Source: an uncultured Candidatus Saccharimonas sp. (GTDB lineage Bacteria; Patescibacteriota; Saccharimonadia; Saccharimonadales; AWTP1-31). From it: DNA of 24,000 bases. Made by a program: the position numbers and the translations under genes. Where the stretch lies: contig CALRBD010000006.1 in NCBI GenBank assembly GCA_943353855.1, forward strand, positions 1 through 24,000, written 5' to 3'. Positions 592 through 21,851 of this stretch are shown in pieces; position 1 is the stretch's first letter; each line of letters starts with the position of its first letter. The notes beneath the pieces are model-generated. The model had not been told where the DNA came from. It was given only the letters and a program-made list of their open reading frames with translations, and searched no databases.

Positions 592-729
592 TTAATGTGT
601 GAGTCGTGCTCGACCTTTGTTGCGGCGTGCACGTAGAATGTTACGGCCAGCTTTGGTCGCCATTCGTTTTAAGAATCCGTGTTCGCGTGAGCGGTGTCGT
701 TTCTTCGGTTGGTATGTTCTTTTTGGCAT
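592..729 (-). CDS. rpmH: 50S ribosomal protein L34
   Basis: Own translation, below the ORF-track size cut-off: [45 protein letters not shown] followed by a stop. This is close to consensus L34. ATG at 729-727, TAA at 594-592. The listed plus-strand ORF 599..784 is its antisense shadow. Confidence 0.92.
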
Positions 730-2426: not shown

Positions 2427-2714
2427 TAAAAATATAGTCTTGTACTGTGGACAAGCTGTGCAGCGTATATGGACAGCTTGTAGTATAACTACGAGTTTTG
2501 TCCCCTCCCCTGCTTTTTGCACACATTTTGTGCGCAGCCTGTGTGTAAATAGTGGTACTTTTACACTACTTATGCCCCTATCTTTTACTCGTCTTATTGT
2601 CGGTTTCTTCCCTGTTAGTAACGACTTATACTCATTACCCACAGGCCCTACTATAAGTACTATATTTCTAAATAAGAATTCATTTAATAATAAGACAATG
2701 GCAAGGAGCTGTGT
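2427..2714. promoter_or_regulatory. candidate oriC part 2 (dnaA-dnaN spacer with a DnaA box, an inverted repeat and an AT-rich stretch)
   Basis: 288-bp spacer, long compared with the tight packing elsewhere in the window. It contains TGTGGACAA at 2447-2455 (reverse DnaA box, 1 mismatch), a related TATGGACAG at 2468-2476, an inverted repeat ACAAGCTGT 2451-2459 / ACAGCTTGT 2473-2481, and an AT-rich run at about 2655-2700 that could act as an unwinding element. Confidence 0.4.
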
Positions 2715-3806: not shown

Positions 3807-3815
3807 AGTAGTAGT

Positions 3816-4868: not shown

Positions 4869-5446
4869 TCTACCAAGTTTTCATTGTTAATTGGAGGAGG
4901 ATTAGTCACTATACCTGAATCAAACACGAGTTTCGTTCCTTGGTTTAGTTTAAGTTGAATATCTGCAACTCCAGAGTATGTGACTACGGCAGATAATTTT
5001 TCTTTCCTTTGGATGAGTGTATCGAAGGATATAGATGGATTACCGCCTGTTTCTCTATCGATTGGATTAGAGGTAACAGAGTCTACGTAGACACTAACTT
5101 CTTTTTTACCGTTATCGCCTTTACCTAAGTAAGTATTGAAGGCAATTTTTAAATTGGTAAGTTGATCCTGAGAAAGCCCGTATTGAATCAATTTACCAAA
5201 ACCTAAAAATACCGGCTCAGTCGATGCATTATCTTCAAGTATTTCAGGAGTCTTATCTGCCTTATCGTCAATAGTTTCTTTTGATGCAGGATCGTAGTAT
5301 ACATCCGTTTTGTTTTGTGTTTCTTTACCTAGGAATGACACAAATAATACAATAAGCCCAATAACTATAAAAGCCCCAATCGCTATACCTATTTTTTTAT
5401 TCCTGGAAAGATTAACATTCTCTTGAAAATTACTTAGTAATTGCAT
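4865..5446 (-). CDS. hypothetical bitopic membrane protein, last gene of the T4SS-like operon (possible VirB8/PrgL analogue)
   Basis: 193-aa ORF with a short N-terminus, one TM helix (IGIAIGAFIVIGLIVLFVSFL) and an extracytoplasmic domain of about 150 aa. Its start overlaps the upstream gene by 17 nt. Its stop overlaps the recF stop by 4 nt. Confidence 0.6.
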   Translation of the reverse strand: MQLLSNFQENVNLSRNKKIGIAIGAFIVIGLIVLFVSFLGKETQNKTDVYYDPASKETIDDKADKTPEILEDNASTEPVFLGFGKLIQYGLSQDQLTNLKIAFNTYLGKGDNGKKEVSVYVDSVTSNPIDRETGGNPSISFDTLIQRKEKLSAVVTYSGVADIQLKLNQGTKLVFDSGIVTNPPPINNENLVD

Positions 5447-6686
5447 AAGTACTACCTCCTGGCATTGCGCTTAATATTTGTTGAGGATCCCATTCTTGCG
5501 TATTGGCAGCTTCATGTGCTGAATCTCCCACTAGTAATTTACCTGAGGCTGTAACTGCCCGAATAACGATATAGTGTCCACCTTTACTGAAAGGCACTGG
5601 ACCTTTACCTGAAGTTATAACTAGTCCACCAGCTTGCAAAGTTTGAGTTATTCTTGCAAGATCTTTTCCTATTGGTGTTGCTTTTAGTCCCCAGTTTTGA
5701 GCTAAGACTGGCGCTATACTCCATGAGCTTCCTGAGCCTGGTATGTATAGTCCTTTACTAGCAGCAAAGTTTGCAGTTTCTGGCGGCTTTACGCTTTTAC
5801 CTGTTAAGTTAGTTATAATCATTGCCATTGCGGAAGGCCCACAGCCTGACTCACCAATCGTGCTGGAAGAGTATGGCAAATTCCTCCAGGCTGGATCGTA
5901 CTGACTATAAACTGTAAAACCATCTATATATTTTGTGTTTTCTCCGGCTCCTGTTGCAGGTCCACAATTAGCACTTGGCGATTCTGTAGATGAAGTAGTT
6001 GTAGTGCCTTGTACTGCCCCACCGTATGTAGCAAGCGTCTTATTACCTGCATCAATACGTTTCGCCAAACCCTGAACATTAGTTAAGGGTACTTTACTGG
6101 TACTACCATCAATAATTGCGACCTCAAAGAACCTACCCCAATACCAAGCTGAAAGATCTACAGATGGCTGCGGCTTAATACCTTCGATATTACCCCTACT
6201 CTCAGCCTCATACCAAGCAAACTGCAATTGACCGTCAAGCGATAGCGGATCTAAATTCTTTTCAGCTGTCCATTTCTTTAGGTTCGCAAACCTACCTTTG
6301 GTATCCCACTGGAACATTCCTGAAAAACCACCGCTCTTAGAGACTGAGTTTGGGTTAACGCCTGATTCAGCAATTGCATTTCCAGTTATTCCCGCAGCTT
6401 GTTCTTTCGTGAGACCTTTTGATACAAAAAACCTGAATGTTTTTTCGGTGTTGTCGTTACCATTTAGGTCTATCGACACTGCACTATCAGGCACAGAACA
6501 TTTAGCCTCTACTGCACAACTGAGGTTAATTGCTCCAATATTTCTCAAATAACTTTGATCACATTGCCTATCCGTTAGTGCGAATGCAGCCCTCGGTACA
6601 AGTGCTGAAATACTGAAAACACTAATAAACATTAATATCTTAAGTGTCTTGAGAATATTTAATAAATATTTATGGTAGTACTTCAT
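5430..6686 (-). CDS. secreted two-domain cell-wall hydrolase: phage-tail-lysozyme-like domain plus C39-like papain-fold cysteine peptidase domain
   Basis: Signal-peptide-like N-terminus (MKYYHKYLLNILKTLKILMFISVFSISALVPRAAFA). Residues about 90-230 (GLTKEQAAGITGNAIAESGVNP...GMFQWD...LDGQLQFAWYE) look like the Phage_tail_lysozyme family. A Thr/Ser linker follows. Then comes a C39_2-like domain with catalytic-looking Cys (GESGCGPSAMAMI) and His (GGHYIVI). I chose the start at the ATG 6686-6684. The ATG at 6632 is an alternative. Confidence 0.8.
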   Translation of the reverse strand: MKYYHKYLLNILKTLKILMFISVFSISALVPRAAFALTDRQCDQSYLRNIGAINLSCAVEAKCSVPDSAVSIDLNGNDNTEKTFRFFVSKGLTKEQAAGITGNAIAESGVNPNSVSKSGGFSGMFQWDTKGRFANLKKWTAEKNLDPLSLDGQLQFAWYEAESRGNIEGIKPQPSVDLSAWYWGRFFEVAIIDGSTSKVPLTNVQGLAKRIDAGNKTLATYGGAVQGTTTTSSTESPSANCGPATGAGENTKYIDGFTVYSQYDPAWRNLPYSSSTIGESGCGPSAMAMIITNLTGKSVKPPETANFAASKGLYIPGSGSSWSIAPVLAQNWGLKATPIGKDLARITQTLQAGGLVITSGKGPVPFSKGGHYIVIRAVTASGKLLVGDSAHEAANTQEWDPQQILSAMPGGSTYAITK

Positions 6687-9600
6687 AGCCCTGGTATAGT
6701 CCTTTTGAAATATCAATAAATCTTGCTTTTACATCAGCCGAACAAGCATCTCTACTGCATTGGGCCCTACCCTTACCTTTCATAGCATCAAAATGTAGAT
6801 GCGGTGGTGAATTACAGGCAGCCGGCGATGATCCTACGACCCCAATCTTATCTCCTGGTTTTAATACTGCACCTTTAGCTACGCCTCCTGCACCAGGATC
6901 CATATGTTGATAGAAATACGTAGCATCATTCACAGAATCATATACTGTAACAGTGAATGCTGATCCAAAACCGTGGCCACAATCACCTTTATCGGCCTTT
7001 AATACCGTTCCAGAGGAGGCTGCAAGAACTGGTGTACCTGGAGCTGCAAATAGATCATGTGCTTTATACTTATGGCCAGCATCACATATTGATTTTTGAG
7101 CTATCTGTAGACATGAACCGAGAGAGCTTTGAACCTGTGCTTTAGATTGCTGAAGCGGCCAAGTTAGTCCCGCTGACACGCCAGCACCTGCAGCTGGAGG
7201 AGGCCCTAATTGTGAAATAAGAAAAGTAGACTTTGCGGCATAGCCCGCACCGTTTAAATGTATTCCATCACCAGCACCAGGATATTTGGCTTTGTTTTTC
7301 GCGTATTCAGAACTCCAATCAATAACCTTGAATTTTAATGCCAATGATTGAAGAAGTAAGCTAGAATTGTCCGCCGCATAGTCTTGTTTATCTGTACGAG
7401 AATTCATCCAGACTATATTAGCCGTTGGATTTATCCCTCGTATAGTGTCGACCATCTGCTTTATTTTTTCTGCATATCCAGTAGACGCATTCGTACCAAG
7501 CATTACAACTACCGTTCCTGCCTGAGCTACTATTGCGCTATCTACAGTAACTTTAGTTATAGCCTGTTCAGTTCTGTCCCCAACAGTCGCTTCAATATCT
7601 GTTGAATCCCAGCCTGCAGCAGTGTATTTATCCCTTAGTCCTCCGGCATCCCGCATACCAACTGTAAGAGAATCACCAACCGTGTAGACTTTATTGTTAC
7701 CCGATCCTATAGCTGCCGAGTCTGCTGCAGATGGAGTATCTATATCTTCAGGAAAGAACTCAGCCTCAAACGCATCTGTTGTATCTAGATAAGCTAGGTG
7801 AGCCTTGAATTGCTTAGTCTGCTGCTTTTCTGCAAGGCAGTCAGACTCATCGGATTCCTCGATCTGCGTAAGTATATCGGTATTTTCTACACAATTTTCA
7901 ACATGTCTCGCAAAGGCGCTGCCCTCAATTGGTAGCAGGGTCTGGGCGTCGATCTGATTATCCGCAATTAAGGCATCGGAGTTAGGCTCAGGATCAATTG
8001 CTTCAATATCTGGCCGCATAATAACCTGAAGATTACCAGCAGGGTCCGTAGCTAAATCAGTTTTTTTACCATTACTTCCATTTAGCGTATAAGTATCGTA
8101 AGAAACCTCATCACCAACTTCAGCTGAAACTCTACCCGTAAATAAGTTACCCAAGGTGCTCAAGTATCTGCCTGGATTTAGTACTGAAGATGCAAGAGAC
8201 ACGGAAGCATCCTTACTACTGTTAACTAAGCCAGTAACACTTGTTGGTGTTGCTAATGCGAGATTAAACATCAGGTTGTTGGGTTGCTCCGGATTAAGTA
8301 ATTTTTCTTTAAAACTCAAATTTTTAAATTGCTCATTTCTCCAAGCTATATACTCACCTTCAGCTGCAGCGTATTGCTGAGTCGTTGCTGGCACCATACC
8401 AGCAGACAGCGACCTTTGTTTATTGGAGGCACCCGCACCGGCTACTAGAATATCTCCCAGTTGACCACCTTTCTCTTGTCCAGTAAAAGGTAGTGTGAGC
8501 TGTTTTTGAACATAAGCCTGCATGTAACCCATGAATGCCTCGAATCCAAGATTTCCAATAGCCCCTAAAGCAACTTGTTTTAATGCCTGTTTTGAAATTA
8601 TTGAAGCTACTATATCTTTTACTACCGTCTGAAGCGCTATCTTGAAAGAGCCTTCAGCAAGCAAAATAGCAACTTCACTTTGTCCGCCCGAAAAGACTCC
8701 CGCAACCACACTAGCCGCACCAGCACCTACTTGTACTATTGGGTTCTGTACGACTGGACAACCGGCTCCAAGTCCTGGGGTCCCGTCAAGCTTTTCGTTT
8801 ATTCCACCTACTACTCCAGTTAGTTTGCCGTCCACTGCTACGGATTGCTTTGTTTGTTTATTTCTGCTTTTGCTAAACTTACTCTTCATCATATATGCAA
8901 AACCTGGCGACCCCCCAATAGAATTTCCATTAGAATCCTCTGACATAACACGCTTCATAAGTGAATTAAGAAGCTTGGGGTCAGCGTTTCCTCGTCTTGT
9001 ATCGTCTGCTGCATTAATGAAAACCATAGCATAGCGGATAAGTTTAATGGATCTTGCAGCCCTAGCTAACTGTATAGCGGTCTGTGCACGCTTCTTTATA
9101 GTGCAGACTTTATCTAATATATCTAGTGGGTTTAGTAACCCCTTAGCTCCTGCGGTAAATTTTGATCCAAAGGAAACGCTTGCAGCTCCATTTTCTAGAC
9201 TTTCTTGAAGGGCTTCATCTATAGTCCCAGATGCAATTCCCGCAGCAATACCTTTAGTGTTTACATCTGCACCTTCAGTAAGTATAGCTTTACGTTCGGC
9301 ATCTAGCTCTTCAGTAAGTGCTCCGCCAGTATCATTGGCTTTTGCTGCTCGTTCTTCATAGGATTGTTTTTCTTCTGGTGTCTTACCATCCGTATCATTT
9401 GTAGTATTAATTGCGTCTATCTCCCCTTTTTTATTGGGGTCAAGTACTTCCGTAGCAACATTTTTATTAACCTGATTATTTGCTGGAAGATCTTTGTCAG
9501 GACTATTTTTTGCTTTTGCTGCATCTATAACTGAGGTACTTGTAACACCATATATCTTTTTAAAAGCATTCATCCGTTTAGTTTTCCAACGCGAGGATCT

Positions 9601-10221
9601 AAATGGATGTCTTTGGTCCATCCATGCCTCCACATTATCGCCTATAGCATTTCCAATAAGGCCGTTTGCTCCTCTAGATGTCTGAAGACCTATGAGTGAA
9701 CCTTTCTTGTAACTTAATATATAGCCATCTGCCGCTAGCTCGTCTACCATCTTATTGGCCATGCGACCACCAGGTTTAAAGAAATTTTTCATCTTAGGAA
9801 TTTTCCCTTGCCGATATTTTCTTTGCTGGTACATTTGCACATTGCCAATCCGGCCAATGAGCATTTCCTTGAGCTGGTTGACTAGTAAGTTTGGAATTTG
9901 TAAGAAAATTAATATAAATCCAGTGATTAATGAAGAAGCGATACCAAAACCAATTGCTGCTCTTTTTTTGGAAAGCCTTGATTTAAAGGAATTACCTTTC
10001 GGCTTCCCTGGTTTGTATAACGAGCCCCCTTCGGATTTGTCTGCTTTAGTTGAAGAGGACTTCGCTCCCGATTTTTCCTTAGCTTGAATGTCTTTCGATG
10101 ACATGGCATCACTAGAAGATCCTTCATCCCCAGTTTCGCTTGTTTTGTCTAGGGACGTTTTCCAAGCGGGCTTATCCTCGTCGTAGATTCCTGCATTTCG
10201 TTCTTCTAGATCTGTCGCCAT
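6670..10221 (-). CDS. 1183-aa membrane-anchored multidomain protein with C-terminal SGNH/GDSL hydrolase and M23 (LytM) metallopeptidase domains
   Basis: Acidic/Ser-rich N-terminus of about 85 aa, one TM helix (AAIGFGIASSLITGFILIFLQIP) and a region of about 730 aa with no recognisable family. The SGNH domain (nt 7207-7698) has blocks GDS (VGDSLT), GxN (LGTNA) and DxxH (DGIHLN). The M23 domain (nt about 6673-7090) has HxxxD (HKYKAHD) and HxH (HLHF) motifs. The gene starts 3 nt after the virB4 stop. Confidence 0.85.
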   Translation of the reverse strand: MATDLEERNAGIYDEDKPAWKTSLDKTSETGDEGSSSDAMSSKDIQAKEKSGAKSSSTKADKSEGGSLYKPGKPKGNSFKSRLSKKRAAIGFGIASSLITGFILIFLQIPNLLVNQLKEMLIGRIGNVQMYQQRKYRQGKIPKMKNFFKPGGRMANKMVDELAADGYILSYKKGSLIGLQTSRGANGLIGNAIGDNVEAWMDQRHPFRSSRWKTKRMNAFKKIYGVTSTSVIDAAKAKNSPDKDLPANNQVNKNVATEVLDPNKKGEIDAINTTNDTDGKTPEEKQSYEERAAKANDTGGALTEELDAERKAILTEGADVNTKGIAAGIASGTIDEALQESLENGAASVSFGSKFTAGAKGLLNPLDILDKVCTIKKRAQTAIQLARAARSIKLIRYAMVFINAADDTRRGNADPKLLNSLMKRVMSEDSNGNSIGGSPGFAYMMKSKFSKSRNKQTKQSVAVDGKLTGVVGGINEKLDGTPGLGAGCPVVQNPIVQVGAGAASVVAGVFSGGQSEVAILLAEGSFKIALQTVVKDIVASIISKQALKQVALGAIGNLGFEAFMGYMQAYVQKQLTLPFTGQEKGGQLGDILVAGAGASNKQRSLSAGMVPATTQQYAAAEGEYIAWRNEQFKNLSFKEKLLNPEQPNNLMFNLALATPTSVTGLVNSSKDASVSLASSVLNPGRYLSTLGNLFTGRVSAEVGDEVSYDTYTLNGSNGKKTDLATDPAGNLQVIMRPDIEAIDPEPNSDALIADNQIDAQTLLPIEGSAFARHVENCVENTDILTQIEESDESDCLAEKQQTKQFKAHLAYLDTTDAFEAEFFPEDIDTPSAADSAAIGSGNNKVYTVGDSLTVGMRDAGGLRDKYTAAGWDSTDIEATVGDRTEQAITKVTVDSAIVAQAGTVVVMLGTNASTGYAEKIKQMVDTIRGINPTANIVWMNSRTDKQDYAADNSSLLLQSLALKFKVIDWSSEYAKNKAKYPGAGDGIHLNGAGYAAKSTFLISQLGPPPAAGAGVSAGLTWPLQQSKAQVQSSLGSCLQIAQKSICDAGHKYKAHDLFAAPGTPVLAASSGTVLKADKGDCGHGFGSAFTVTVYDSVNDATYFYQHMDPGAGGVAKGAVLKPGDKIGVVGSSPAACNSPPHLHFDAMKGKGRAQCSRDACSADVKARFIDISKGLYQGYEVLP

Positions 10222-10223
10222 AA

Positions 10224-12137
10224 TTATGATCCTGGGGTTAGTCTATTAGTAAGATCAATTGTACCTTGAGGTTGATTTAATTCACCCTGCTGCTCTATCG
10301 CCTTAACCTGATCAGGGTTAGTCGTAATAAGTGCGGTTTCAGTCGGGCTGCCGCTAATCTGTATGTGCACGTGACTTTGACCTGCAAAGAAGAGACCCTG
10401 ACCGACTGGGAATTGACTAAGACGCTTCTTTTCCTCACTTGTTAATTTAAATACTTCAGCTAGCTTATCTATAGCAGATGATGACTGCTTGAGAAGAAGC
10501 TGCATACTAGCGTTAGCCACGATCGCACGGCCCATTCGACTATTCATGAAATCTTCAACATCCTGGCTTATAGTTGTAATACCAAGGTTATATTTACGAG
10601 AACGTTTAGCTAGGCTGAACATGAAGTTTGCTGAATCTTCGTATTTCATGAGCTGCCAGGCCTCATCGATAATCAGGATACGTCTTTTCTTATCGCTCTT
10701 AGTCTTATTCCAGATGTAGTTCAGAACAATATACATAGCAACTGGACGTAGTTCATCTTCTAGGTCACGAATGTTAAAAACAACCATCGGATTGTTAATA
10801 TTAGTATTAGACTGTTGGCTAAATATTCCTGCGAAAGTTCCAGTAGTATATTTACGTAATCGTTGAGCAAGCTGAGGGCCAGTACCTCCCATGTGCAATA
10901 AGACATCGTAAAGATCTACGATTGTTGGCGGCAGTGCTTTATGTGTTAGTGGATCGTTTGTAATGCCGGCTTTTGAGTAAGTTTCAATAAGGGCAGCATC
11001 AAGATCAGATTCTTCTACCGGGTTAAGCGCAGGCATCGAAGCTGTTCCGCCTGAAACCATTTGTGATTGTGCTCCACCCATCATGAGGCGTAGCAAACCA
11101 TGGAGCGTTATGATGTTACTTCGAAGGGCATTGTCTGCATCTTCGTTATCAATAACTAACGGAAGGTCAAAAGGGTTAATGCGTGTTGCTGAGTTTAGGC
11201 TTAATCTTACGTATGAACCTCCAACAGCTTCACACATCCTTTGGTATTCGTTCTCTGGGTCAATAATAAAGATCTCAGTACCGAACATTAAACTTCGAAG
11301 TGCCTCAAGTTTTACTGCAAAAGATTTTCCTGCTCCAGACTTAGCAAATACAACAGAGTTTCCATTTTCAAGACTAAATCTATCAAAAATAACTAAGCCC
11401 GAGTTGTGCATGTTTATGCCATATAATATTCCATTATCTTGACTTAAATCCGCACTAGTAAATGGAAAACTTGTGCTGATAGCACCTGTGTTCATATTTC
11501 TTCTAATTAGAAGTTGATCTGTAAATTGCGGTATTACACTGTTAAAGGCTTGCTCCTGCTGAGACGTTGCTGCTTTAGAATAAACTAGCTGTTGACCTAG
11601 TACTGACTCAATTTTATGTGTTACAAACTCTAGCTCATCCAGGCTAGACCCGTAAATAGTGAAATACATACCAAACCGGAAGAAACGTTCTTCACCCACT
11701 TGAAGCTTATCTCGCATTTCTTCGGCATCTTGAATTGCAGCCTGCTTACCTGGGTCACGTGTTCTACCCTTCTCTGCATCAATCTGTAAACCAGCTTCAA
11801 GCTGAGTAACCTTTTTTCTGAGGTTTTCAAGCACAACCTGACTTTCTACGGGGTAAATATACATAGAAAGATCCATAACCTCATCCATATTAACCATACT
11901 ACTCAGCCAGCCTGTGAAAACTTGTCGAGGGTATCCATATACATATAGGGTTCGTGCGAAACGGGTTCCAATATGAAAGAAATTATTTTCATAGACTAAA
12001 GAGCTTGGTGCAATAAAATCGCGTAGTGCGGTAACACCTTTTTGGAAGGCTGCACCTACCTCTTGCTCTTCTTTGACTTTTTGAGCTTGAGCTATCGCTA
12101 CAGGATCTGCAGCTTGTTTTTTCTTTCCGAACGCCAT
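10224..12137 (-). CDS. virB4: VirB4/TraE/PrgJ-family type IV secretion ATPase
   Basis: 637-aa ORF with a VirB4-type N-terminal domain (ARTLYVYGYPRQVFTGWLSSM), Walker A (AKSGAGKSFAVK) and Walker B (RILIIDEAWQL). The start ATG overlaps the stop of the upstream gene (TAATG). Confidence 0.9.
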   Translation of the reverse strand: MAFGKKKQAADPVAIAQAQKVKEEQEVGAAFQKGVTALRDFIAPSSLVYENNFFHIGTRFARTLYVYGYPRQVFTGWLSSMVNMDEVMDLSMYIYPVESQVVLENLRKKVTQLEAGLQIDAEKGRTRDPGKQAAIQDAEEMRDKLQVGEERFFRFGMYFTIYGSSLDELEFVTHKIESVLGQQLVYSKAATSQQEQAFNSVIPQFTDQLLIRRNMNTGAISTSFPFTSADLSQDNGILYGINMHNSGLVIFDRFSLENGNSVVFAKSGAGKSFAVKLEALRSLMFGTEIFIIDPENEYQRMCEAVGGSYVRLSLNSATRINPFDLPLVIDNEDADNALRSNIITLHGLLRLMMGGAQSQMVSGGTASMPALNPVEESDLDAALIETYSKAGITNDPLTHKALPPTIVDLYDVLLHMGGTGPQLAQRLRKYTTGTFAGIFSQQSNTNINNPMVVFNIRDLEDELRPVAMYIVLNYIWNKTKSDKKRRILIIDEAWQLMKYEDSANFMFSLAKRSRKYNLGITTISQDVEDFMNSRMGRAIVANASMQLLLKQSSSAIDKLAEVFKLTSEEKKRLSQFPVGQGLFFAGQSHVHIQISGSPTETALITTNPDQVKAIEQQGELNQPQGTIDLTNRLTPGS

Positions 12138-13090
12138 TAGTGCATCTCCCTATCTAGACCTGGTTGTGGTGCTTCACCAACACCTTTAGATACTACAGGT
12201 ACTGAAAGATCTTCAAAATTCTTAAGTGGTTGGCGGGTCGCAGTGTCGGGGTTGTAGCTGTCATAGTAAAGTTCAATTAACTCTTGGGTATCAAGTGGTA
12301 GGCCTTGAATACCGCACTGCATAAGTCCTCCTAATACCGCCTGCACTCTGTTACGTAGCTCATCCTTTGCCTTCACTAGATCAGCTTCATTAATCAGCAC
12401 CTGGTTTTGTGGTTTCTTACTGAAAAGTGCTGAGACACCCTTAACGAGACCCTTACTTGAAGACAATGCTTTTTGTACATCAACCACAGGATAGTAAGGA
12501 ATAACTACATAGAACTTCTTGTCCATGATATTAACTTGCTGGCTTATAGTGTCCATGTAATTAATGTAGTCATCCATAAGTACCGCTAAGAGCATATTGT
12601 CATGCTCTGAGCGTATTTTATCGAGCTTTTGAATGTAGGGTCCGAGATCAACCTTTTGAGACCGAATCGTAATTTGAATAGGAAAATATAAAGAGTTTAA
12701 AAAGCCCTGATAGCTAAATTCAACTGATTCCCTTTCCTCAGGACTCATAAGATCAAAATTAATAGATTTAACCATGATAATCGAACGGAAGCTGCCGTCA
12801 TTCATAATTACAATACCGTCACGTATCTCTGCCATCTGCAAAGCGTTTTGTGTGCTATTAGGATTTGATTTGGGCGCAGCAACTGGAGTTTGTATTACGC
12901 CTGGCTGCTGTGAACCTGATCTAGTCTGGGGTGCATACATATTTCCAGGAATATTTGTTACTGGCACTGAACCGGGCATAGCAATAGACTGAGAAGCAAC
13001 GCCACTCGTCGGAGGAGGCCCATAAGGATTAGATGGGACGCCAGTTGTATTTGCTTGACCCATTTGAGGTTGATTATAAGAAGGATTCAT
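12137..13090 (-). CDS. hypothetical T4SS-associated protein: Pro/Gln/Asn-rich N-terminus plus a globular domain resembling a VirB4 N-terminal domain
   Basis: 317-aa ORF translationally coupled to virB4. The first 85 aa or so are low complexity (NPSYNQPQMGQ...PGVIQTPVAAPK). The rest (IRDGIVIMNDGSFRSIIMVKSINFDLMSPEERESVEFSYQGFLNSLYFPIQITIRS...KKFYVVIPYY) follows the same strand/helix pattern as the first 180 aa or so of the adjacent VirB4. It has no Walker motifs. Confidence 0.6.
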   Translation of the reverse strand: MNPSYNQPQMGQANTTGVPSNPYGPPPTSGVASQSIAMPGSVPVTNIPGNMYAPQTRSGSQQPGVIQTPVAAPKSNPNSTQNALQMAEIRDGIVIMNDGSFRSIIMVKSINFDLMSPEERESVEFSYQGFLNSLYFPIQITIRSQKVDLGPYIQKLDKIRSEHDNMLLAVLMDDYINYMDTISQQVNIMDKKFYVVIPYYPVVDVQKALSSSKGLVKGVSALFSKKPQNQVLINEADLVKAKDELRNRVQAVLGGLMQCGIQGLPLDTQELIELYYDSYNPDTATRQPLKNFEDLSVPVVSKGVGEAPQPGLDREMH

Positions 13091-13120: not shown

Positions 13121-14107
13121 CTAATGAAGAGAAACAATTACTTCTTCGTCGAGTTGCCCATGAGCTTGATTGGTCTCACGCGCAAGACTTTCAACGGTTC
13201 TATCATTGTTCCTTGCAAGTTCAATTGTAACAGGGTCAGGGGCTACTGTCACTTGTGAAACTGGACTTTTTTGCGTTGGAACATCACTAATAGGTGCCAA
13301 TGATTTATGGTTTCTGAATGATTGACCAAATTGACTTTTATTCTCATGAATTTCATCAAGAAAAGCTTTTTCATTTGGATCGAGACCGCTTTCTTTATTC
13401 TTAAAAGCAGCTGGAAGATCCCCGTCATTACTAGGATTATTCTGCATAAACCAATTTGGTCGGGCATCATCTGGTTTATGCATCTGCTCTATTATTTCAC
13501 TCTTATGTTTTTGACTGTTTTCTTCTATTTTTGCAGCTATCTGAGCGGCTTGCGGATTATCAAATATATCCTCACTATCCGGGATATCTACAGCCGATAT
13601 TACAGAAGGAAGCATTGTAGGGTTCATCAATCTATCGCTAGCAGCCCCTCCAGCTGCAGCATAGGCAGGATTACTAACGATATTTTTAGTAGCCCAGCCT
13701 CGAGTATCTACAGTCTCTGCTAATGCTCTAAGCCTTTGTCTTACCTCATCTTGCGATAGGTTATCGCTAGTATATTGCGCCACTACTTTAGGAACATTAA
13801 TCTTTACTAGTTCTTGAATTCCAGTCTGATCCCATATTCTTTTACGTGGCTTAAAGTAAAATCGCAGTTTAGCTAGAAGCCACGTCTCTGTTGGCTGGTC
13901 TCTTCCCCACGGGAAGGCTAGAAAACCTGTAACAAGAATAAGTGGAAATAGTGGGATCGCCAAAAGCGGTAAGCCCTTTGTTATAAAAAGAAAACTCAAA
14001 TATGAACTCACTAATGCGATTGAACCAAAGATAAATTGTTTTAAGGTTAAGGGCCCTAAAAACTTATCTTCTGCTTCTATATCTTGTAATACTTTGTATG
14101 TTGCCAT
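13121..14107 (-). CDS. PrgI-family (VirB3-like) membrane protein with a long C-terminal extension
   Basis: The N-terminus MATYKVLQDIEAEDKFLGPLTLKQFIFGSIALVSSYLSF matches the PrgI-family signature (D-I-x-x-x-E-D-K-x-x-G-P-x-T-x-[KR]-Q-F-I). Two TM helices follow. The remaining 230 aa or so are polar and low complexity. Position upstream of virB4 fits a VirB3 role. Confidence 0.7.
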   Translation of the reverse strand: MATYKVLQDIEAEDKFLGPLTLKQFIFGSIALVSSYLSFLFITKGLPLLAIPLFPLILVTGFLAFPWGRDQPTETWLLAKLRFYFKPRKRIWDQTGIQELVKINVPKVVAQYTSDNLSQDEVRQRLRALAETVDTRGWATKNIVSNPAYAAAGGAASDRLMNPTMLPSVISAVDIPDSEDIFDNPQAAQIAAKIEENSQKHKSEIIEQMHKPDDARPNWFMQNNPSNDGDLPAAFKNKESGLDPNEKAFLDEIHENKSQFGQSFRNHKSLAPISDVPTQKSPVSQVTVAPDPVTIELARNNDRTVESLARETNQAHGQLDEEVIVSLH

Positions 14108-15056: not shown

Positions 15057-18000
15057 CTAAGACTTGATTTCCGAGCTTATTACTACTGAACTTCGCTTCT
15101 TAAATTCAGCATAAGTAATAAAATCTATGTCAATACGAGAGTAGTAGACCTTATAATATCCCCATTTATCTACAGTTACTGCTTCTGGATATTGTTTGGC
15201 TATTTCTTGAGCAATAACACCAACATACTCAACTTCACTCCATAGGTACTTATATCTATATACTTTAATGCCAGAATCGTTGGTGTAAAAGTATTTAATC
15301 TCTTTTTTGAGCCGACGATCACTCGTAGTTGGCTGGCTAGAAGTTCTAGATCGCATGGTAGGATCAATAAGCTCTGCAACACGACCGTTGGATAGAATAC
15401 TCATTCTTCCTGCACGACTTGGATCTGTAGTATATCCAAAATGGTTTGCGAGCATTTCTGTTACAGCTGGCTGTCCCAAATCGGGATCTATGCCAAGGTC
15501 TTGCAACATACCAATCGCTTCGTCCCTACTCTCACCAAGAGAACCTTGGTATAAGCCCGTTATGAGCTCATGTCCAAATGTAAAGCTGTCTGCTCGGTCT
15601 TCATCCAGCATAGTAGGATCCATCGTGGCAACTCGTGCTGCGTCTGTTCGAACTATATCCCGTGTTGCTGCAGCCGATTCAGCGTTCGTGACCATTGCCG
15701 CTGCACCAACTCTTTTACTTGTATCCTTGTAGGCATTTCGTCTCGCTCTGTAAGTATCTGGATTTGCAGCGGCATCTCCTAAGCCTCCACCTATATCCAT
15801 TCTCTGTGCACCACGAAGGCTGAAGGCTGCCGCACCACGAAGATCTTCTTGTTCAAGTGCCGAACCGCCCATTCGCGCGATACCACGTTCAAATGATCCG
15901 ACATCACCGTTAGCAATACCCATGCCCTTATTCGCACCCATATTTGCTATTGCAGCTGCCGAGTTAGTCTTGGAGAAGCCTTGTACTGCCGCCGCCTGAT
16001 AGGCTCTATTGAATCTAGCAGTTTGGGTCGCTTCGAATTCATCCCGTGCTTGTGCGGTCGCACCCGGATTTTGTCTGTCGAAAGTTTCCATCTGGCCTCT
16101 TACAAGATCGTTTACGGCTTCTCTTCCGCCCGCAGTAGTTCCTCCAGAAAGGGCGCTCACAGTTGCAGCCTCGCCATCTCTAGTAAGAAAATTTTGGAAA
16201 GCCGGGTCTTTCGCAGCATCTCCTGAAATGTTACTTAAATTACGCTTCCTAGCTTCATTACCTTTAGTTCCTATACCAAAGCGACCGCGAGTACCTGTCG
16301 CTAATCCAGATACGCCACGGTTAAGGCCTGCCGAAATACTCTGCCCATACCTGCCGCTACGAATTAAATCTCCGGTCTTTGCATCTCTACCCATCTGAGC
16401 ATATCCTTGTTGTCGGCGCTTACGAAGCTTGTCAAGGCCTGGACGTCCAGTATCCTGAATCTTCGATGCTACTGCACCAAAAACACCGCCAGCAGCTTTA
16501 AATGTAAATGGAATAAGTGCATAAGGGATAACATAAGCAGTCAGTTTAATGATTGTTCCGTAAAGGCCAGTAAAAGCGCCGGCAGCTGAAAAAGCGAATA
16601 TACGTCCTGCTCCTATTAATGCCATTACCATTGGATACATTAGAAGAAGTTTAGTAAAATTGCTCCACCAAAACTGCCACGCTTTAGCACTACCAGGAAA
16701 AATCCATGCAAGAATAGCTAGCGGAGCGAAAAGGATTAGTACAATTATGAACATTTGTCTTGCTATTAAAGTCACAAATGCCATCAGCAAAACAAGTAAT
16801 GCGCCCCCTAGCCATGTCCCGACAATCCCTAGGGCTCCTGAAGTGGCGAATATGCTGACTGCACCTACAAAAAGTACACCACCTTGAAGTGCCCCGTCAG
16901 CCCCGTCCACTTTAAATAACGTGCTTATATTTTCGTTGCCTATGTTTCCAAAAGGAGCTTGCATTATACCTAAAAGACCTTGACCTATAGAAGTTGTGAC
17001 ATCAATAAGTAAAATACATAGCCACCATGACAGGAGTATGAATATAATTGAAGCAATCAATTTAGGGAATGCTTTTTTAACTGTGTAGGCGTCCAGGAAG
17101 CTGAGACCCAGGGCTGTGCTGATAACTATTATCATCATAGCTGCTACAAGTAACGATAGAGCGATATTTCGAAAGCCTGTCCATGCAGACTTAAGGCCAG
17201 CATTTTCTTTATATTGATTGGGTTGTAGCACCATAAGATTTTGCACTTGATCGTCAATCCAAGTAGTAGTAGAGCCAATAATATTGATAATTGGGCAACC
17301 AAACCAACCTGTTACCCCTGATTGTCCTTCGCAAGAATCGTCTGCTCCACCAGTTGTTGACCCTGAGTCGCTATTAGCTATGCCAGGAGGAATTTGATCC
17401 TTGTTGCCAGTAACCTTAGCGTAGGCTGCATAGTTGTTACTCATCCTATTACCTATATTTACACAACTTTGCTCTCCGTCTTCCACGCCATGTGTTCCGT
17501 AACCAACTGAAGCTGTTCCATTGTCATCGTTTACTGTATAAGTTTTGTCACCTATTGTTACAGTATCACTGTTTGATCCATAGACATTTGTCACAATCTT
17601 TGCACCACAGCCCTTAACGAACGCCGCCGAATAATTAAGATAAGTCATAGCCTTTTTCTCATCGTCACTTACGCCTTCATTCTGTTTCTTAATAGAAGCA
17701 TTTATCTGGTCTTTAACCTTGGCTTTAGCTGGACCTCCGGTCTTGCCGGTCAAAAAACCATCCGATTCTTTGTATGTGTAGTTTGGTACATTATTCCTAT
17801 TTATAAAATAAAGTGAATTATCATTTTTTTTAAGATTACCGGTCGAAGGGCCAGCATAAGGATTATCTCCACTATACCAACCAGTGTAACGCTTGCTGTC
17901 ACTTCCGTTTACGAGGAGAAGCTTAAACCAGGCATCTTGTCTTGAACTTTTTCCGTCCTCACAGTCCCAATCTCCATACTGTTGCTCAACTATATGGCCA

Positions 18001-18263
18001 ACTTTAACAGTGGCGCCCCCAGTACTCAGAAAGCCTTCATTAAAGGGCCCACTCCCTGCCTTGATTCCGTCAGAATTCAGCTTGTCTTGCACGCATCTAG
18101 CCATTGCTTCAAGCTTTAAAATCGTAGAGACTTTAGTAGTTAGCTGGCTTTCGTTTAATGCCGCACTGGCTTTTTGGGGTGATAATAAAGAGACTCCAAC
18201 AAAACTAAGTATAAAAACAAATGTTAGAGTTATCGATGAAATTTTGTTCATATATTTATTCAT
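15057..18263 (-). CDS. VirB6/TrbL-like polytopic T4SS channel protein with a large N-terminal ectodomain, a Gly/Ala/Arg-rich C-terminal region and a terminal S74 intramolecular-chaperone domain
   Basis: Signal/anchor sequence MNKYMNKISSITLTFVFILSFVGVSLLSPQKASA, then a Cys-containing ectodomain of about 340 aa. A block of hydrophobic helices at nt about 16415-17180 (e.g. LVLLMAFVTLIARQMFIIVLILFAPLAILAWIFPG) is typical of TrbL/VirB6. A tail of about 360 aa follows. The last 88 aa (nt 15060-15323) read SDRRLKKEIKYF...YVGVIAQEIAKQYPEAVTV...YYKVYYSRI, a good match to the endosialidase/tail-fibre chaperone (Peptidase_S74) domain. I moved the start to the ATG at 18263 because the track's GTG at 18332 overlaps a good promoter. 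Confidence 0.8.
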   Translation of the reverse strand: MNKYMNKISSITLTFVFILSFVGVSLLSPQKASAALNESQLTTKVSTILKLEAMARCVQDKLNSDGIKAGSGPFNEGFLSTGGATVKVGHIVEQQYGDWDCEDGKSSRQDAWFKLLLVNGSDSKRYTGWYSGDNPYAGPSTGNLKKNDNSLYFINRNNVPNYTYKESDGFLTGKTGGPAKAKVKDQINASIKKQNEGVSDDEKKAMTYLNYSAAFVKGCGAKIVTNVYGSNSDTVTIGDKTYTVNDDNGTASVGYGTHGVEDGEQSCVNIGNRMSNNYAAYAKVTGNKDQIPPGIANSDSGSTTGGADDSCEGQSGVTGWFGCPIINIIGSTTTWIDDQVQNLMVLQPNQYKENAGLKSAWTGFRNIALSLLVAAMMIIVISTALGLSFLDAYTVKKAFPKLIASIIFILLSWWLCILLIDVTTSIGQGLLGIMQAPFGNIGNENISTLFKVDGADGALQGGVLFVGAVSIFATSGALGIVGTWLGGALLVLLMAFVTLIARQMFIIVLILFAPLAILAWIFPGSAKAWQFWWSNFTKLLLMYPMVMALIGAGRIFAFSAAGAFTGLYGTIIKLTAYVIPYALIPFTFKAAGGVFGAVASKIQDTGRPGLDKLRKRRQQGYAQMGRDAKTGDLIRSGRYGQSISAGLNRGVSGLATGTRGRFGIGTKGNEARKRNLSNISGDAAKDPAFQNFLTRDGEAATVSALSGGTTAGGREAVNDLVRGQMETFDRQNPGATAQARDEFEATQTARFNRAYQAAAVQGFSKTNSAAAIANMGANKGMGIANGDVGSFERGIARMGGSALEQEDLRGAAAFSLRGAQRMDIGGGLGDAAANPDTYRARRNAYKDTSKRVGAAAMVTNAESAAATRDIVRTDAARVATMDPTMLDEDRADSFTFGHELITGLYQGSLGESRDEAIGMLQDLGIDPDLGQPAVTEMLANHFGYTTDPSRAGRMSILSNGRVAELIDPTMRSRTSSQPTTSDRRLKKEIKYFYTNDSGIKVYRYKYLWSEVEYVGVIAQEIAKQYPEAVTVDKWGYYKVYYSRIDIDFITYAEFKKRSSVVISSEIKS

Positions 18264-18384: not shown

Positions 18385-18414
18385 TTGTAATTATCATGGC
18401 CGTCTGCTTATAAT
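18385..18414 (+). promoter_or_regulatory. candidate sigma70-type promoter of the pilin operon
   Basis: TTGTAA (18385-18390), an 18-nt spacer, then TATAAT (18409-18414). This lies about 40 nt upstream of the ATG at 18455. Confidence 0.4.
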
Positions 18415-18454: not shown

Positions 18455-18898
18455 ATGACCCTATCAAATACTAGAACAACGATATTCACGACACTGGCTA
18501 TAGTTATAGCTAGTATATTTTTAATTTTTGCGTTTTGGGCACCTACAAAAGTACAAGCTGGCGGTAATCCTGCTGATAATCCCGACACTGCACAGCCTAC
18601 TGATGTGCCTCCTAAAAGAACAGACCCGACTGCTGAATGCCAAAAAGGAATAGAAGATTATGAAACCTGCGGCGTTACAAGAAATATAGTCCTGTTGATC
18701 AATGTTTTATCTGCGACACTTGGAGTTGTGGTTACCGCAGTCATTATTATTGCAGGAATACAATACTCAGCTTCAGCGGGTAATCCACAGGCCGCTGCTG
18801 CTGCTCGTCAAAGAATTGTTAATGCTGCCCTTGCACTATTATTTTTTGCAGGAATGTATGGTTTTCTACAGTGGATTGTGCCTGGAGGATTACTATGA
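18455..18898 (+). CDS. VirB2/TrbC-like T4SS pilin paralog 1
   Basis: 147 aa. Signal/anchor sequence ending VQA, a variable region with a Cys pair (AECQKGIEDYETCG), then a two-helix hairpin with the loop motif GIQYSASAGNP shared in variant form by the five downstream genes. Confidence 0.75.
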   Translation: MTLSNTRTTIFTTLAIVIASIFLIFAFWAPTKVQAGGNPADNPDTAQPTDVPPKRTDPTAECQKGIEDYETCGVTRNIVLLINVLSATLGVVVTAVIIIAGIQYSASAGNPQAAAAARQRIVNAALALLFFAGMYGFLQWIVPGGLL

Positions 18899-19356
18899 AG
18901 CGGTTAGGCTTTTTTTCAATAACCTTGTTAACTATGTGCCTTGTTTTTACAGTTACACCTAAGGTCCAAGCTGCCGTAGCTCCTGGTTGCGATAAGAGCT
19001 CCGCATTCCTCGGGATGCCTGTTTGGTATAAATACCTTGATGTTGGACCAGAAACATTACAAGATAATAAAGTCGACCCATGCGCAATAACAGGGCCAAA
19101 GAATGCTGAAGGTGGATTAGACATCCAGAAGGCGATTCCCCGAGTTGGTCTTGCGGTAGTTGAAATATTATTAAGAATTGCTGGAATGGTAGCCGTAGCT
19201 TTTGTAATATACGGAGGTTTTAAGTTCGTTACTAGCCAAGGTGAACCTGAAGCCTACAAGACAGCTCAACGAACAATAATTAACGCATTGATAGGTGTCG
19301 CAATTTCGGTCCTAGCGGTAACCATTGTTAGTGTTATTGGAGGGGCGATATTATGA
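18895..19356 (+). CDS. VirB2/TrbC-like T4SS pilin paralog 2
   Basis: Start moved to the ATG at 18895 (GGAGGA at 18884-18889, ATGA overlap with paralog 1). Signal peptide MKRLGFFSITLLTMCLVFTVTPKVQA, a Cys pair (APGCDKS...VDPCAI) and a hairpin with GGFKFVTSQGEP. Confidence 0.8.
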   Translation: MKRLGFFSITLLTMCLVFTVTPKVQAAVAPGCDKSSAFLGMPVWYKYLDVGPETLQDNKVDPCAITGPKNAEGGLDIQKAIPRVGLAVVEILLRIAGMVAVAFVIYGGFKFVTSQGEPEAYKTAQRTIINALIGVAISVLAVTIVSVIGGAIL

Positions 19357-19655
19357 TCCATCGTTTAACCCATTTCAAGCAAATAGCACAGACTGTAATT
19401 GACTCTAAAAAATTAAATATTCCACAAAAAGGATTAACTAATGATACAGTAGACAACATTTCGAAAATTGTCTTTGGTACGCTAGGTGCTGTAGCGCTTA
19501 TTATCATTATTATCGCTGGCATTAAATTTATGACATCACAAGGTAATCCAGAAGCCCTTGCCAAGGCGCGCAATACTATAATCTATGCGGCAGTCGGACT
19601 GGCAGTAGCAGTTGGAGCCTTCAGTATCGTTACGTTTGTAATAGGTAGACTGTAG
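19353..19655 (+). CDS. VirB2/TrbC-like T4SS pilin paralog 3 (short form, no signal peptide, no Cys)
   Basis: 100 aa with an ATGA overlap with paralog 2. Hydrophilic N-terminus (MIHRLTHFKQIAQTVIDSKKLNIPQKG), then the conserved hairpin with AGIKFMTSQGNP. Confidence 0.75.
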   Translation: MIHRLTHFKQIAQTVIDSKKLNIPQKGLTNDTVDNISKIVFGTLGAVALIIIIIAGIKFMTSQGNPEALAKARNTIIYAAVGLAVAVGAFSIVTFVIGRL

Positions 19656-20078
19656 ATGAAGAAATATATATCTATTATCGCTGCATTTTTTTTACTCACG
19701 TCTCTTAGTACTGGAAACGTGTTTGCAGCCGTCGTGGATCCTCCTGCGGGGTACGCGGGCCCTTACGCAGAGGTTTGCGCCGATAACCCTAGCGCTACGG
19801 TCTGTCAAGATCAGGAGAAGCTTTCAACAGATACGAATACATCGCCAATATACGGTCCTGACGGTGTTCTTCCAAAAGTGGCAAACATTCTGGCTATTGC
19901 AGCGGGAATAATTGCGGTAGTAATGATCATGGTAAGTGGTCTTAAGATGATTACATCAACTGGAGATAGTAAGAAATTTGGCGATGCCCGAAACGGTATC
20001 ATATATGCCTCAGTCGGTCTGGTCATAGTTTTGATGGCAAGAGTAATAATAGAATTTATATTGAGGACAATAGCATGA
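19656..20078 (+). CDS. VirB2/TrbC-like T4SS pilin paralog 4
   Basis: 140 aa, starting immediately after the paralog 3 stop. Signal peptide MKKYISIIAAFFLLTSLSTGNVFA, a Cys pair (EVCADNPSATVCQD) and a hairpin with SGLKMITSTGDS. Confidence 0.8.
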   Translation: MKKYISIIAAFFLLTSLSTGNVFAAVVDPPAGYAGPYAEVCADNPSATVCQDQEKLSTDTNTSPIYGPDGVLPKVANILAIAAGIIAVVMIMVSGLKMITSTGDSKKFGDARNGIIYASVGLVIVLMARVIIEFILRTIA

Positions 20079-20470
20079 AATACACACAAAAATTATTAAG
20101 AGCAACTAGCATTTTTATAATGTGCCTTTTCATTATAACTCCCCATATTGCACTTGCAGCATCCGGCGCATCCAAAGATGCTTTATGTGGTGGAGCTGGA
20201 CTAGTTGGTGGTGGTACCGGTTGCACGGCTCCGCCAGGATCCTCATCAGTAGATTCAGTAATTAAAAAAAGCATAAACATCTTTAGCGCAGTAATAGGCA
20301 TAATTGCAGTAGTAATGGTCATGGTTGGAGGATTGAAATATATTACTTCACAGGGCGATGCAGCTGCTACTGCTACTGCTAAAAATACCATACTCTATGC
20401 CGCCGTTGGCCTTGTAGTTGTTGCTCTTGCTCAAGTTATTGTAAGATTTGTTCTAAGTAGGTTTTCCTAA
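20075..20470 (+). CDS. VirB2/TrbC-like T4SS pilin paralog 5
   Basis: 131 aa with an ATGA overlap with paralog 4. Signal peptide ending ALA, a Cys pair (DALCGGAGLVGGGTGCT) and a hairpin with GGLKYITSQGDA. The C-terminal helix is nearly identical to that of paralog 6. Confidence 0.8.
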   Translation: MKYTQKLLRATSIFIMCLFIITPHIALAASGASKDALCGGAGLVGGGTGCTAPPGSSSVDSVIKKSINIFSAVIGIIAVVMVMVGGLKYITSQGDAAATATAKNTILYAAVGLVVVALAQVIVRFVLSRFS

Positions 20471-20486
20471 TATGTAGCAAAACCAC

Positions 20487-20516
20487 TTGTAATTACTAAA
20501 ATAGTTATGGTATAAA
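20487..20516 (+). promoter_or_regulatory. candidate internal promoter for pilin paralog 6
   Basis: TTGTAA (20487-20492), an 18-nt spacer, then TATAAA (20511-20516) preceded by TGG (extended -10). The -35 hexamer and spacing match the candidate promoter at 18385-18414. Confidence 0.35.
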
Positions 20517-20544
20517 AATAAGTAAGATTAACGAAAGGTTCATA

Positions 20545-20955
20545 ATGATCAAGAAAATAAAAATAACTTTAATAGGACTAATGGCAGCGGCAGCATTAAT
20601 CGTTCCCCTAACTATCCCGGCTAGCGTATACGCTGAGGACATACAAAAGAGTCTATGCGGAGGTACAGACCTAACTCTTGCTAAAGATGGTGGCAACTGC
20701 ACAAACCCAGATGCCGAGCTTAAAGTAAACAACACTATTACTCTTGCTCTTAATGTATTCTCTGCAATTGTTGGTATTATTGCTGTCGTCATGATTATCG
20801 TTGGAGGTGTGAAATATATTACTTCACAGGGTGAATCCGCAAATATAACATCAGCTAAGAATACGATTCTTTATGCTCTAGTAGGACTTGTTGTGGTCGC
20901 ACTGGCTCAAGTTATCGTAAGATTTGTACTCACTCGATTCGTTGGCAATAACTAA
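20545..20955 (+). CDS. VirB2/TrbC-like T4SS pilin paralog 6
   Basis: 136 aa. Signal peptide MIKKIKITLIGLMAAAALIVPLTIPASVYA, a Cys pair (SLCGGTDLTLAKDGGNCT) and a hairpin with GGVKYITSQGES. It is separated from paralog 5 by a 74-bp spacer. Confidence 0.8.
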   Translation: MIKKIKITLIGLMAAAALIVPLTIPASVYAEDIQKSLCGGTDLTLAKDGGNCTNPDAELKVNNTITLALNVFSAIVGIIAVVMIIVGGVKYITSQGESANITSAKNTILYALVGLVVVALAQVIVRFVLTRFVGNN

Positions 20956-20971: not shown

Positions 20972-20997
20972 AAAACCCCCACCAGGGGGTTTTATTC
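20972..20997 (+). terminator. rho-independent terminator of the pilin operon
   Basis: AAAACCCCC (20972-20980), loop ACCA, GGGGGTTTT (20985-20993), followed by a T-rich run. Confidence 0.75.
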
Positions 20998-21028
20998 TAA
21001 CTAAATATCTTTATTGATACAAGCATAT

Positions 21029-21057
21029 AGAAAAGCCCCTATGTTAGGGGCTTTTCT
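21029..21057. terminator. bidirectional hairpin terminator, probably serving the minus-strand hsp20 gene
   Basis: AGAAAAGCCCCT (21029-21040), loop ATGTT, AGGGGCTTTTCT (21046-21057). This is a perfect 12-bp stem flanked by A/T runs, 20 nt beyond the hsp20 stop. Confidence 0.75.
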
Positions 21058-21076
21058 ATATGAGTTAGGAATTACC

Positions 21077-21720: not shown

Positions 21721-21749
21721 TTGTTCTAGGGTCTATTCCCTGCTATAAT
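21721..21749 (+). promoter_or_regulatory. candidate promoter of tRNA-Ser(UGA)
   Basis: TTGTTC (21721-21726), a 17-nt spacer, then TATAAT (21744-21749). This lies 12 nt upstream of the mature tRNA 5' end. Confidence 0.5.
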
Positions 21750-21761: not shown

Positions 21762-21851
21762 GGAAGGGTGTCCGAGTGGTCGAAGGAAACGGTCTTGAAA
21801 ACCGTCGTGCCGGCAACGGTACCGTGGGTTCGAATCCCACCCCTTCCGCCA
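21762..21851 (+). tRNA. tRNA-Ser (anticodon UGA), CCA encoded
   Basis: Acceptor stem GGAAGGG/CCCTTCC, anticodon loop CTTGAAA, a long class-II variable arm (TCGTGCCGGCAACGGTACCGT), T-loop GGTTCGAATCC and a 3' GCCA. Confidence 0.9.

Follow-up and report, generated by a model that had tools for sequence, protein, structure and literature searches.

We examined a 24,000-nt stretch of DNA (hereafter the window; contig CALRBD010000006.1 of assembly GCA_943353855.1, positions 1 to 24,000) from an uncultured Candidatus Saccharimonas sp., in which six tandem open reading frames (ORFs) on the + strand, numbered P1 to P6 from 5' to 3', span positions 18455-20955. This array is very likely the VirB2-like pilin module of a chromosomal, origin-proximal type IV secretion system (T4SS) of Saccharimonadia, orthologous to SEML1_0014-0019 of Southlakia epibionticum ML1, as judged by sequence comparison. 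We favor, with a probability of roughly 0.6, the reading that the six products are obligate and distinct subunits, namely five translationally coupled minor pilins and a separately transcribed major pilin, P6, and not alternatives to one another. Few systems have been shown to be essential to Saccharibacteria as epibionts, and the T4SS with its pilin array is one of them. Arrays of this kind have already been described, and the one in the window is no discovery in itself. What the comparison reported here does is turn "several divergent pilins" into a model, open to testing in S. epibionticum with its tractable genetics, in which six fixed and non-interchangeable subunits would include three neighbors, one leaderless protein and one major subunit with its own promoter, with surface heads that vary among strains. 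The six genes are as follows.

18455..18898, + strand: P1, 147 aa; putative leader, two-cysteine head (C-x9-C), hairpin with GIQYSASAG loop, C-terminal VPGG.
18895..19356, + strand: P2, 153 aa; putative leader, cysteine pair 31 residues apart around P-x-W-Y-K-Y-L, hairpin; ATGA overlap with P1.
19353..19655, + strand: P3, 100 aa; no leader and no cysteine, short N-terminal helix, [LI]-P motif, hairpin; ATGA overlap with P2.
19656..20078, + strand: P4, 140 aa; putative leader, two-cysteine head (C-x8-C), hairpin; directly abuts the P3 stop codon.
20075..20470, + strand: P5, 131 aa; putative leader, two-cysteine head (LCGG...C), hairpin; ATGA overlap with P4.
20545..20955, + strand: P6, 136 aa; putative leader, two-cysteine head (LCGG...C, 14 apart), hairpin; proposed major subunit.

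An earlier note on this DNA had described six consecutive small ORFs that are mostly joined by ATGA overlaps or zero spacing and that share a C-terminal two-helix hairpin with a common loop motif, and each part of this description was confirmed. All six ORFs are present in the ORF list. ATGA overlaps were read at P1/P2, P2/P3 and P4/P5, P3 and P4 abut with zero spacing, and a gap of 74 nt separates P5 from P6; the start of P2 was taken as the ATG, and a GTG at 18871 likewise lies in open frame. The overall identity of the paralogs to P1 is 20-30%, and the C-terminal ~65 residues are alignable across all six proteins. In an alignment of P1-P6, the loop G-x-[KQ]-[YFM]-x-[TA]-S-x-G-[DEN] was matched by six of six copies.

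Assignment to the VirB2/TrbC-type T4SS pilin family, also proposed earlier, is backed by several profile searches. In a Pfam profile search, PF18895 (T4SS_pilin; curated cut-off, 26.6 bits) matched all six copies, five of them above the cut-off (P2, 37.4 bits; P3, 42.2; P4, 39.3; P5, 46.6; P6, 47.5) and P1 just under it (24.8 bits). PF04956 (TrbC/VirB2) matched more weakly than PF18895, with P3 alone above its cut-off (28.7 bits), and NCBIfam model NF045849 was matched by all six proteins (P3, 40.8 bits against a cut-off of 40; the other five, 22-33 bits). We regard P1 as a true member of the pilin family despite its sub-cut-off Pfam score, because hhalign matched a profile of P1 orthologs to those of the P3 family (probability, 98%) and the P6 family (99%). 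P6 had 1377 homologs; among the 120 matches listed, identity was 52-100%, mostly over 96-100% of the query. AlphaFold2 models predict a two-helix hairpin both for P3 (helices 30-61 and 66-99; predicted local distance difference test score 78 overall, 84-93 in the hairpin) and for P6 (helices 55-93 and 98-133). A sequence-profile search of the PDB with the P3 family returned nothing meaningful, and a tblastn search of PLSDB plasmids with P3 gave no match.

The earlier note set the array against classical systems with a single VirB2 pilin, but the array is not unusual for its lineage, being an ortholog of arrays that have been published and surveyed (PMC10633639, PMC12102498, PMC12857230). In S. 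epibionticum ML1, genes SEML1_0014-0019 (399, 558, 312, 381, 384 and 417 bp) all carry PF18895 and are all essential by transposon sequencing (Tn-seq; GD/ES/ES), and the array is divergent from the VirB6-like SEML1_0013, with Hsp20 and tRNA-Ser after it (Wang et al., 2023, PMC10633639). A requirement of each gene for epibiotic growth is known from S. epibionticum only. The window comes from a different, uncultured species, and it matches this array in gene order, in the divergent VirB6-like gene, in the hsp20 and tRNA-Ser genes that follow, in the vicinity of dnaA, in a third gene of ~100 aa (pilin domain from ~residue 38) and in a gap of ~80 nt before the last gene. Across Patescibacteria, 441 VirB2 arrays of 2-11 genes were recorded in 383 assemblies; they are commonest in Saccharimonadia, have an average identity of 25% and are frequently found close to dnaA (Quinonero-Coronel et al., 2025, PMC12102498). 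Positional orthology, gene fusions, cysteine parity, a promoter of the last gene and strain-level hot spots in the heads are unreported in the papers on the S. epibionticum and Patescibacteria arrays, as far as the available text of these papers goes.

As a comparison set, we used 80 species-level Saccharimonadia loci, in which pilin domains were found with a custom hidden Markov model. All related loci came from Saccharibacteria/Saccharimonadia assemblies, and the nearest GTDB representative was 69% identical in P3. Six pilin domains were present in 49 of the 65 arrays that were uncut by contig ends; the remainder had seven (n = 11), eight (n = 3), ten (n = 1) or four (n = 1). Among 45 six-gene arrays, the best match was found at the same position in 93% of cases for position 1, 94% for position 2, 88% for position 3 and 90% for position 6. 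Single-ORF fusions of neighboring pilins occurred in 12 of 80 loci, joining P1 to P2 in eight (L038, L048, L059, L064, L066, L078, L082 and L088) and P2 to P3 in four (L044, at 9736-10447, L062, L073 and L080), and two of the fusion genomes are complete (CP025011.1 and CP064992.1). Because neighboring pilins are fused, complete arrays of five genes still hold six pilin domains, and fusion accounts for every such case. Since both P1-P2 and P2-P3 fusions occur, P1, P2 and P3 are likely to be adjacent in the assembly.

The divergence of P5 and P6 fits with an old, ordered set. These two proteins are identical at 25 of 26 residues in the AKNT...RFVL stretch. In the 30-codon segment 97-126, which includes this stretch, the proportion of synonymous differences (pS) was 0.74 (saturated) and that of nonsynonymous differences (pN) was 0.11; over the hairpins, the values were 0.76 (saturated) and 0.15. 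At the DNA level, the two genes share no repeat longer than 176 nt (73% identity), and no long identical tract was found. Saturated pS with low pN agrees with the earlier argument for purifying selection in place of recent duplication, and on these substitution counts the two genes duplicated long ago and have since been held under purifying selection. The saturated pS and the lack of a long identical tract also ruled out recent gene conversion between the two. Together, the retention of six domains (49 of 65), the positional orthology and the saturated pS with low pN of P5 and P6 argue that the six copies are not redundant.

The signals that would divide the array into transcription units are the following.

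18385..18414, + strand: candidate promoter of the P1-P5 operon, TTGTAA-N18-TATAAT; consensus scan, 10/12 positions matched.
20487..20515, + strand: internal P6 promoter, TTGTAA-N15-TGGTATAA (extended -10), followed by a GAAAGG ribosome-binding site.
20972..20996, + strand: terminator-like hairpin 3' of P6, AAAACCCCC-ACCA-GGGGGTTTT, followed by ATT.

The P6 promoter and the P6 terminator were read directly from the sequence and then tested by conservation; the fixed-rule promoter scanner missed both, the former because its hexamer ends in A. We found TTGNNN-N14-17-TGNTATAA ahead of the last pilin gene, within the intergenic gap, in 52 of 74 species-level loci (expected, ~0.003 per gap), at a median of 33 nt from the start codon and with a GAAAGG-type ribosome-binding site in between. 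The promoter that had been claimed for the last copy is thus strongly supported as real by its phylogenetic footprint. The gap itself measures 75 nt at the median, and 94% of arrays have 40 nt or more there; median spacing is -1 nt at the P1-P4 junctions and 9 nt at the P4/P5-type junction. Of 78 related loci, 60 have a perfect hairpin with a T-run no more than 120 nt past the last pilin gene. Because of this gap, the conserved promoter and the terminator, P6 would be expressed at least partly on its own, and we infer that it is the abundant (major) subunit. At the other end of the array, 47 of 72 related loci have a generic -35/-10 pair no more than 150 nt 5' of the first pilin gene, and the element at 18385..18414 is a weak candidate for the P1-P5 promoter. 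TM7x transcriptomes report that the genes of the homologous set of six do not all react alike to growth phase.

Two further observations concern this promoter type. In several loci (L017, L032, L033, L013, L047, L037 and L058), a terminator-like GC hairpin with a T-run lies 5' of the promoter in the last gap, which would make the last gene of these species a transcription unit entirely of its own. The sole other + strand copy of TTGNNN-N14-17-TGNTATAA in the window is at 21721-21748, 5' of the tRNA-Ser gene (21762-21851), and the element may be a strong housekeeping promoter type of the lineage.

P3 is leaderless and free of cysteines, as had been claimed (ORF check and hydrophobicity heuristic), and a missed upstream start was ruled out, there being no in-frame start codon upstream. 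The term "variant" used for it was less apt, since P3 is no oddity but a conserved member of the array: its homologs (n = 78) are nearly all 90-111 aa long, all but one have a precomputed PF18895 match, and its orthologs sit in the corresponding place in their arrays, for the most part with no classical leader. A short hydrophobic or amphipathic N-terminal stretch is common to the orthologs, with the [LI]-P motif in 72 of 80, and some leaderless orthologs have a C-x6-10-C pair in the N-region. The N-terminus of P3 is most likely outside the cell, because in the P2-P3 fusions its N-region comes directly after the outward-ending second helix of P2. The NF045849 matches of P3 and of all six proteins do not fit easily with the published view that VirB2-like genes are missing from monoderm MPF-FATA systems, and the fact that P3 just reaches the cut-off of this model is a hint that such systems can include a VirB2-like protein.

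In the other five copies, a hydrophobicity heuristic, which was the sole means by which signal peptides were judged, found a putative N-terminal hydrophobic leader with an A-x-A-like end (V-Q-A, V-F-A, A-L-A or V-Y-A). The mature heads of P1, P2, P4, P5 and P6 each contain exactly two cysteines, as had been noted, with spacings of 10, 31, 9, 12 and 14 residues; the measured range is thus 9-31 and not 10 to about 37, and the leaders of P2 and P5 each hold a third cysteine. Across Saccharimonadia loci, the number of head cysteines was even and non-zero in 390 pilins, odd in 12 and zero in 73, so that the cysteine-pair head holds as a family-wide rule. That these numbers are nearly always even points to heads that are disulfide-bonded and extracytoplasmic. 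The heads had also been called unrelated in sequence, which is partly right: LCGG...C is common to P5 and P6, and the P2 head carries a family motif, P-x-W-[YF]-x-[YF]-L, that was found in 50 of 80 P2 orthologs (P-x-W-Y-K-Y-L in the P2 of the window).

In the model that we favor, the six proteins would be non-redundant subunits of a single assembly. P1-P5 would be made from one translationally coupled operon at low and roughly matched levels, and P6 would additionally be made from its own strong extended -10 promoter, closed by the terminator, and would thereby become the major subunit. Each protein would be inserted with both its N-terminal head and its C-terminus outside and with the K-[YF]-[IM]-T-S-Q-G loop in the cytoplasm or the lumen; the heads would be stapled by a disulfide, and the short N-tail of P3 would be placed outside without cleavage of a signal peptide. 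P1, P2 and P3 would be neighbors within the assembly. The assembled structure would be a heteromeric pilus or conduit that stands on the VirB6-like platform and contacts the host bacterium, and its exposed heads, that of P6 above all, would diversify among strains.

A number of points weigh against this model. The composition of the array is not rigid, because 16 of the 65 complete arrays deviate from six domains, and positions 4 and 5 are not cleanly orthologous and mix with position 6. The leaders in five copies are putative, coming from a hydrophobicity heuristic, and the standing of P6 as the major subunit is taken from promoter conservation alone. Essentiality of the upstream genes in the Tn-seq data could come in part from polar effects within the operon. 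A Foldseek search of the PDB with the P3 model returned generic helical hairpins only (E > 0.8), and the fold gives no independent support for a pilin identity because a helical hairpin resembles many structures. Furthermore, no VirB2-type filament is reported on any Saccharibacterium in the literature reviewed, and the thin filaments solved to date in Mycosynbacter consist of Pam pili, which are unrelated. A preprint from 2026 describing a "novel pilus system in CPR" (candidate phyla radiation) was likewise set aside, as it concerns immunoglobulin-like Pam pili unrelated to the array.

These last points lead to the possibility that the six proteins are not pilus subunits, and are either membrane-embedded channel or stalk parts that never polymerize outside the cell or Sec-exported effectors, the TM7x papers having named the homologous genes "putative effectors". 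We consider this conceivable but doubtful. In its favor, besides that label, the unreported pilus and the uninformative fold search, monoderm MPF-FATA systems are published as normally lacking pili, and the nearest curated NCBIfam model describes a pilin-like protein of the integrative and conjugative elements (ICEs) of wall-less Mycoplasma, in which no pilus is known. However, the two hydrophobic helices of ~30 residues in every copy tell against soluble effectors, and the profile similarity is to pilus-forming TrbC/VirB2 proteins. The disulfide-stapled, fast-evolving heads argue for surface exposure, and a strong promoter dedicated to one copy suits a subunit that polymerizes.

The Mycoplasma ICE protein (NF045849, Mbov_0395 family) resembles the proteins of the window in being a two-helix protein, here leaderless and of ~80 aa, from a monoderm, MPF-FATA-type system. 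It differs in being borne on a mobile element, according to the name and description of NF045849; the 80-position model spans only the hairpin and has no disulfide head, and five of the six window proteins score under its cut-off. The diderm pilins VirB2, TrbC and TraA likewise share with the window a small hydrophobic two-helix hairpin with a short polar loop, an N-terminal leader, putative in the window, and genes encoded together with VirB3, VirB4 and VirB6 homologs, and P3 scores above the PF04956 cut-off. Diderm systems differ in having one pilin gene per system, a VirB5 tip protein and an outer-membrane core complex, and in their mature form the pilins, often cyclized or acetylated, have no disulfide head. 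The lineage of the window, in contrast, is monoderm, with an MPF-FATA-like machine and no VirB5, and a relaxase or coupling protein is unreported for it.

We then considered variation among close relatives, since the heads had been described as hypervariable. Eight contigs from different samples were 100% identical to the window over 2.8 kb, and contigs sharing an identical P6 are uninformative on variation because all eight are identical. Near strains (L089, L090 and L092) were found through the 90% cluster of P3; they have the same six genes in the array. Two of them (L090 and L092) are 93-100% identical to the window along most of the array, and fall to 60-69% in the P6 head (20600-20700) and to 77-78% in the P2 head (19000-19100), while L089 is 63% identical in the P1 head (protein). 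The term "hypervariable" is therefore accurate for parts of some heads among close strains (P6, P2 and P1) and not for the rest of the heads. In the P6 head, both pS (~0.5) and pN (~0.3) are elevated among near strains, and the window allele is closer to the more distant L009, the nearest GTDB genome (73% identity), than to the near strains (45-58%), which suggests exchange or long persistence of alleles rather than simple selection on point mutations. Compared with L009, identity is 26-73% in the heads and 66-87% in the hairpins. Hairpin dN/dS (the ratio of nonsynonymous to synonymous rates) was 0.04-0.31 and head dN/dS was below 1 wherever estimable, values that are of limited use against L009 because synonymous sites are saturated.

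VirB2 amplifications in Bartonella and Anaplasma are lineage-specific and variable in copy number, and have been read as variant surface forms. By analogy with Bartonella Trw trwL and Anaplasma virB2, where, as in the window, VirB2-like paralogs stand in tandem in a T4SS that serves host interaction and not conjugation (as cited in the Patescibacteria survey), the six paralogs could be alternative pilins, each forming its own filament or tip and widening host range or evading recognition. Such a role was suggested by the same survey (PMC12102498), and antigenic or phase alternatives were raised by the earlier note. The faster divergence of heads than of hairpins, the strain hot spots in P6, P2 and P1 and the proximity of the window P6 head to L009, with the allele exchange that it suggests, are what would be expected. 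Nevertheless, we find this reading unlikely. Arrays of the window type are ancient and ordered, contain a leaderless member whose state is conserved, and, in S. epibionticum by Tn-seq, consist of individually essential genes, all of which sets them apart from those of Bartonella and Anaplasma. Order and positional orthology are fixed over 80 species-level genomes, and six domains are kept even where genes fuse. A repeat search of the array found no invertible segments, no cassette-like or silent copies and no long identical or inverted repeats, and head dN/dS below 1 also speaks against alternatives. The copies are divergent and the six genes constant in near strains, a pattern unlike that of phase- or antigenically variable pilin loci. 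Diversification of the head of a major subunit is equally compatible with the heteromer model. Finally, that the copies are decaying duplicates of one functional pilin gene, as P1 just under the Pfam cut-off and the leaderless P3 might have suggested, is refuted by conservation, and pseudogenization was ruled out, for all six frames are intact and 100% identical in the eight independent metagenome contigs, each copy has orthologs across the class, the hairpins are under constraint at the dN/dS given above, and six of six genes are essential in S. epibionticum.

Returning to the heteromer model, solved conjugative pili have five-fold layer symmetry, which a layer made of P1-P5 would match. In a more speculative extension, which we think improbable, P1-P5 would form a stoichiometric hetero-oligomeric cap or nucleating layer that replaces the absent VirB5 pentamer, with P6 polymerizing beneath it; the fusions would record neighbors in the ring, and the headed copies would have arisen from P3 as the ancestral monoderm form, comparable to the Mycoplasma ICE protein.

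The T4SS setting of the array was also recovered, with VirB4, VirB3 and VirB6 homologs within 8 kb on the opposite strand.

15057..18263, - strand: VirB6/TrbL-like polytopic membrane protein, divergent from the array; frame open to a TTG at 18332.
13121..14107, - strand: PrgI/VirB3-like T4SS component; PF12666, 45.1 bits.
12137..13090, - strand: TrsD/TraC-like N-terminal-domain ORF, 317 aa; weak match to NF041427 (TrsD), PF26593 precomputed.
10224..12137, - strand: VirB4-type ATPase, 637 aa; PF19044, 93.2 bits.

The VirB6-like gene has a precomputed PF19590 (TrbL_3) match on the identical gene in L002-L005, where it is called as 1068 aa. Its C-terminus matches Peptidase_S74 (PF13884; residues 1004-1053, ~15174-15323; 33.4 bits, cut-off 22), and a weak match to this domain is likewise recorded for the identical gene in other contigs. 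Peptidase_S74 is an intramolecular chaperone of endosialidases and phage tail fibers that normally drives trimerization and then cleaves itself off, and a self-cleaving domain of this kind is odd on a T4SS platform protein. VirB4 is apparently split, the end of the TrsD/TraC-like ORF and the start of the ATPase ORF sharing one base. The T4SS block ends with the genes for two large proteins that putatively degrade the cell wall (5430-10221, - strand), one of 1183 aa with a GDSL lipase and an M23 peptidase and one of 428 aa with a phage-tail lysozyme and a C39-like peptidase.

Positions 213-4868 hold rnpA, dnaA, a 99-aa ORF (2419-2718) unmatched in Pfam, dnaN and recF, and because of these genes we place the T4SS next to the replication origin, a location already reported for Patescibacteria. 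An Rfam scan of the window found three tRNAs only. The hsp20 and tRNA genes lie 3' of the pilins, and between P6 and the convergent hsp20 there is a perfect 18-nt inverted repeat with a 3-nt loop (21024-21062), which is probably the hsp20 terminator or a bidirectional terminator.

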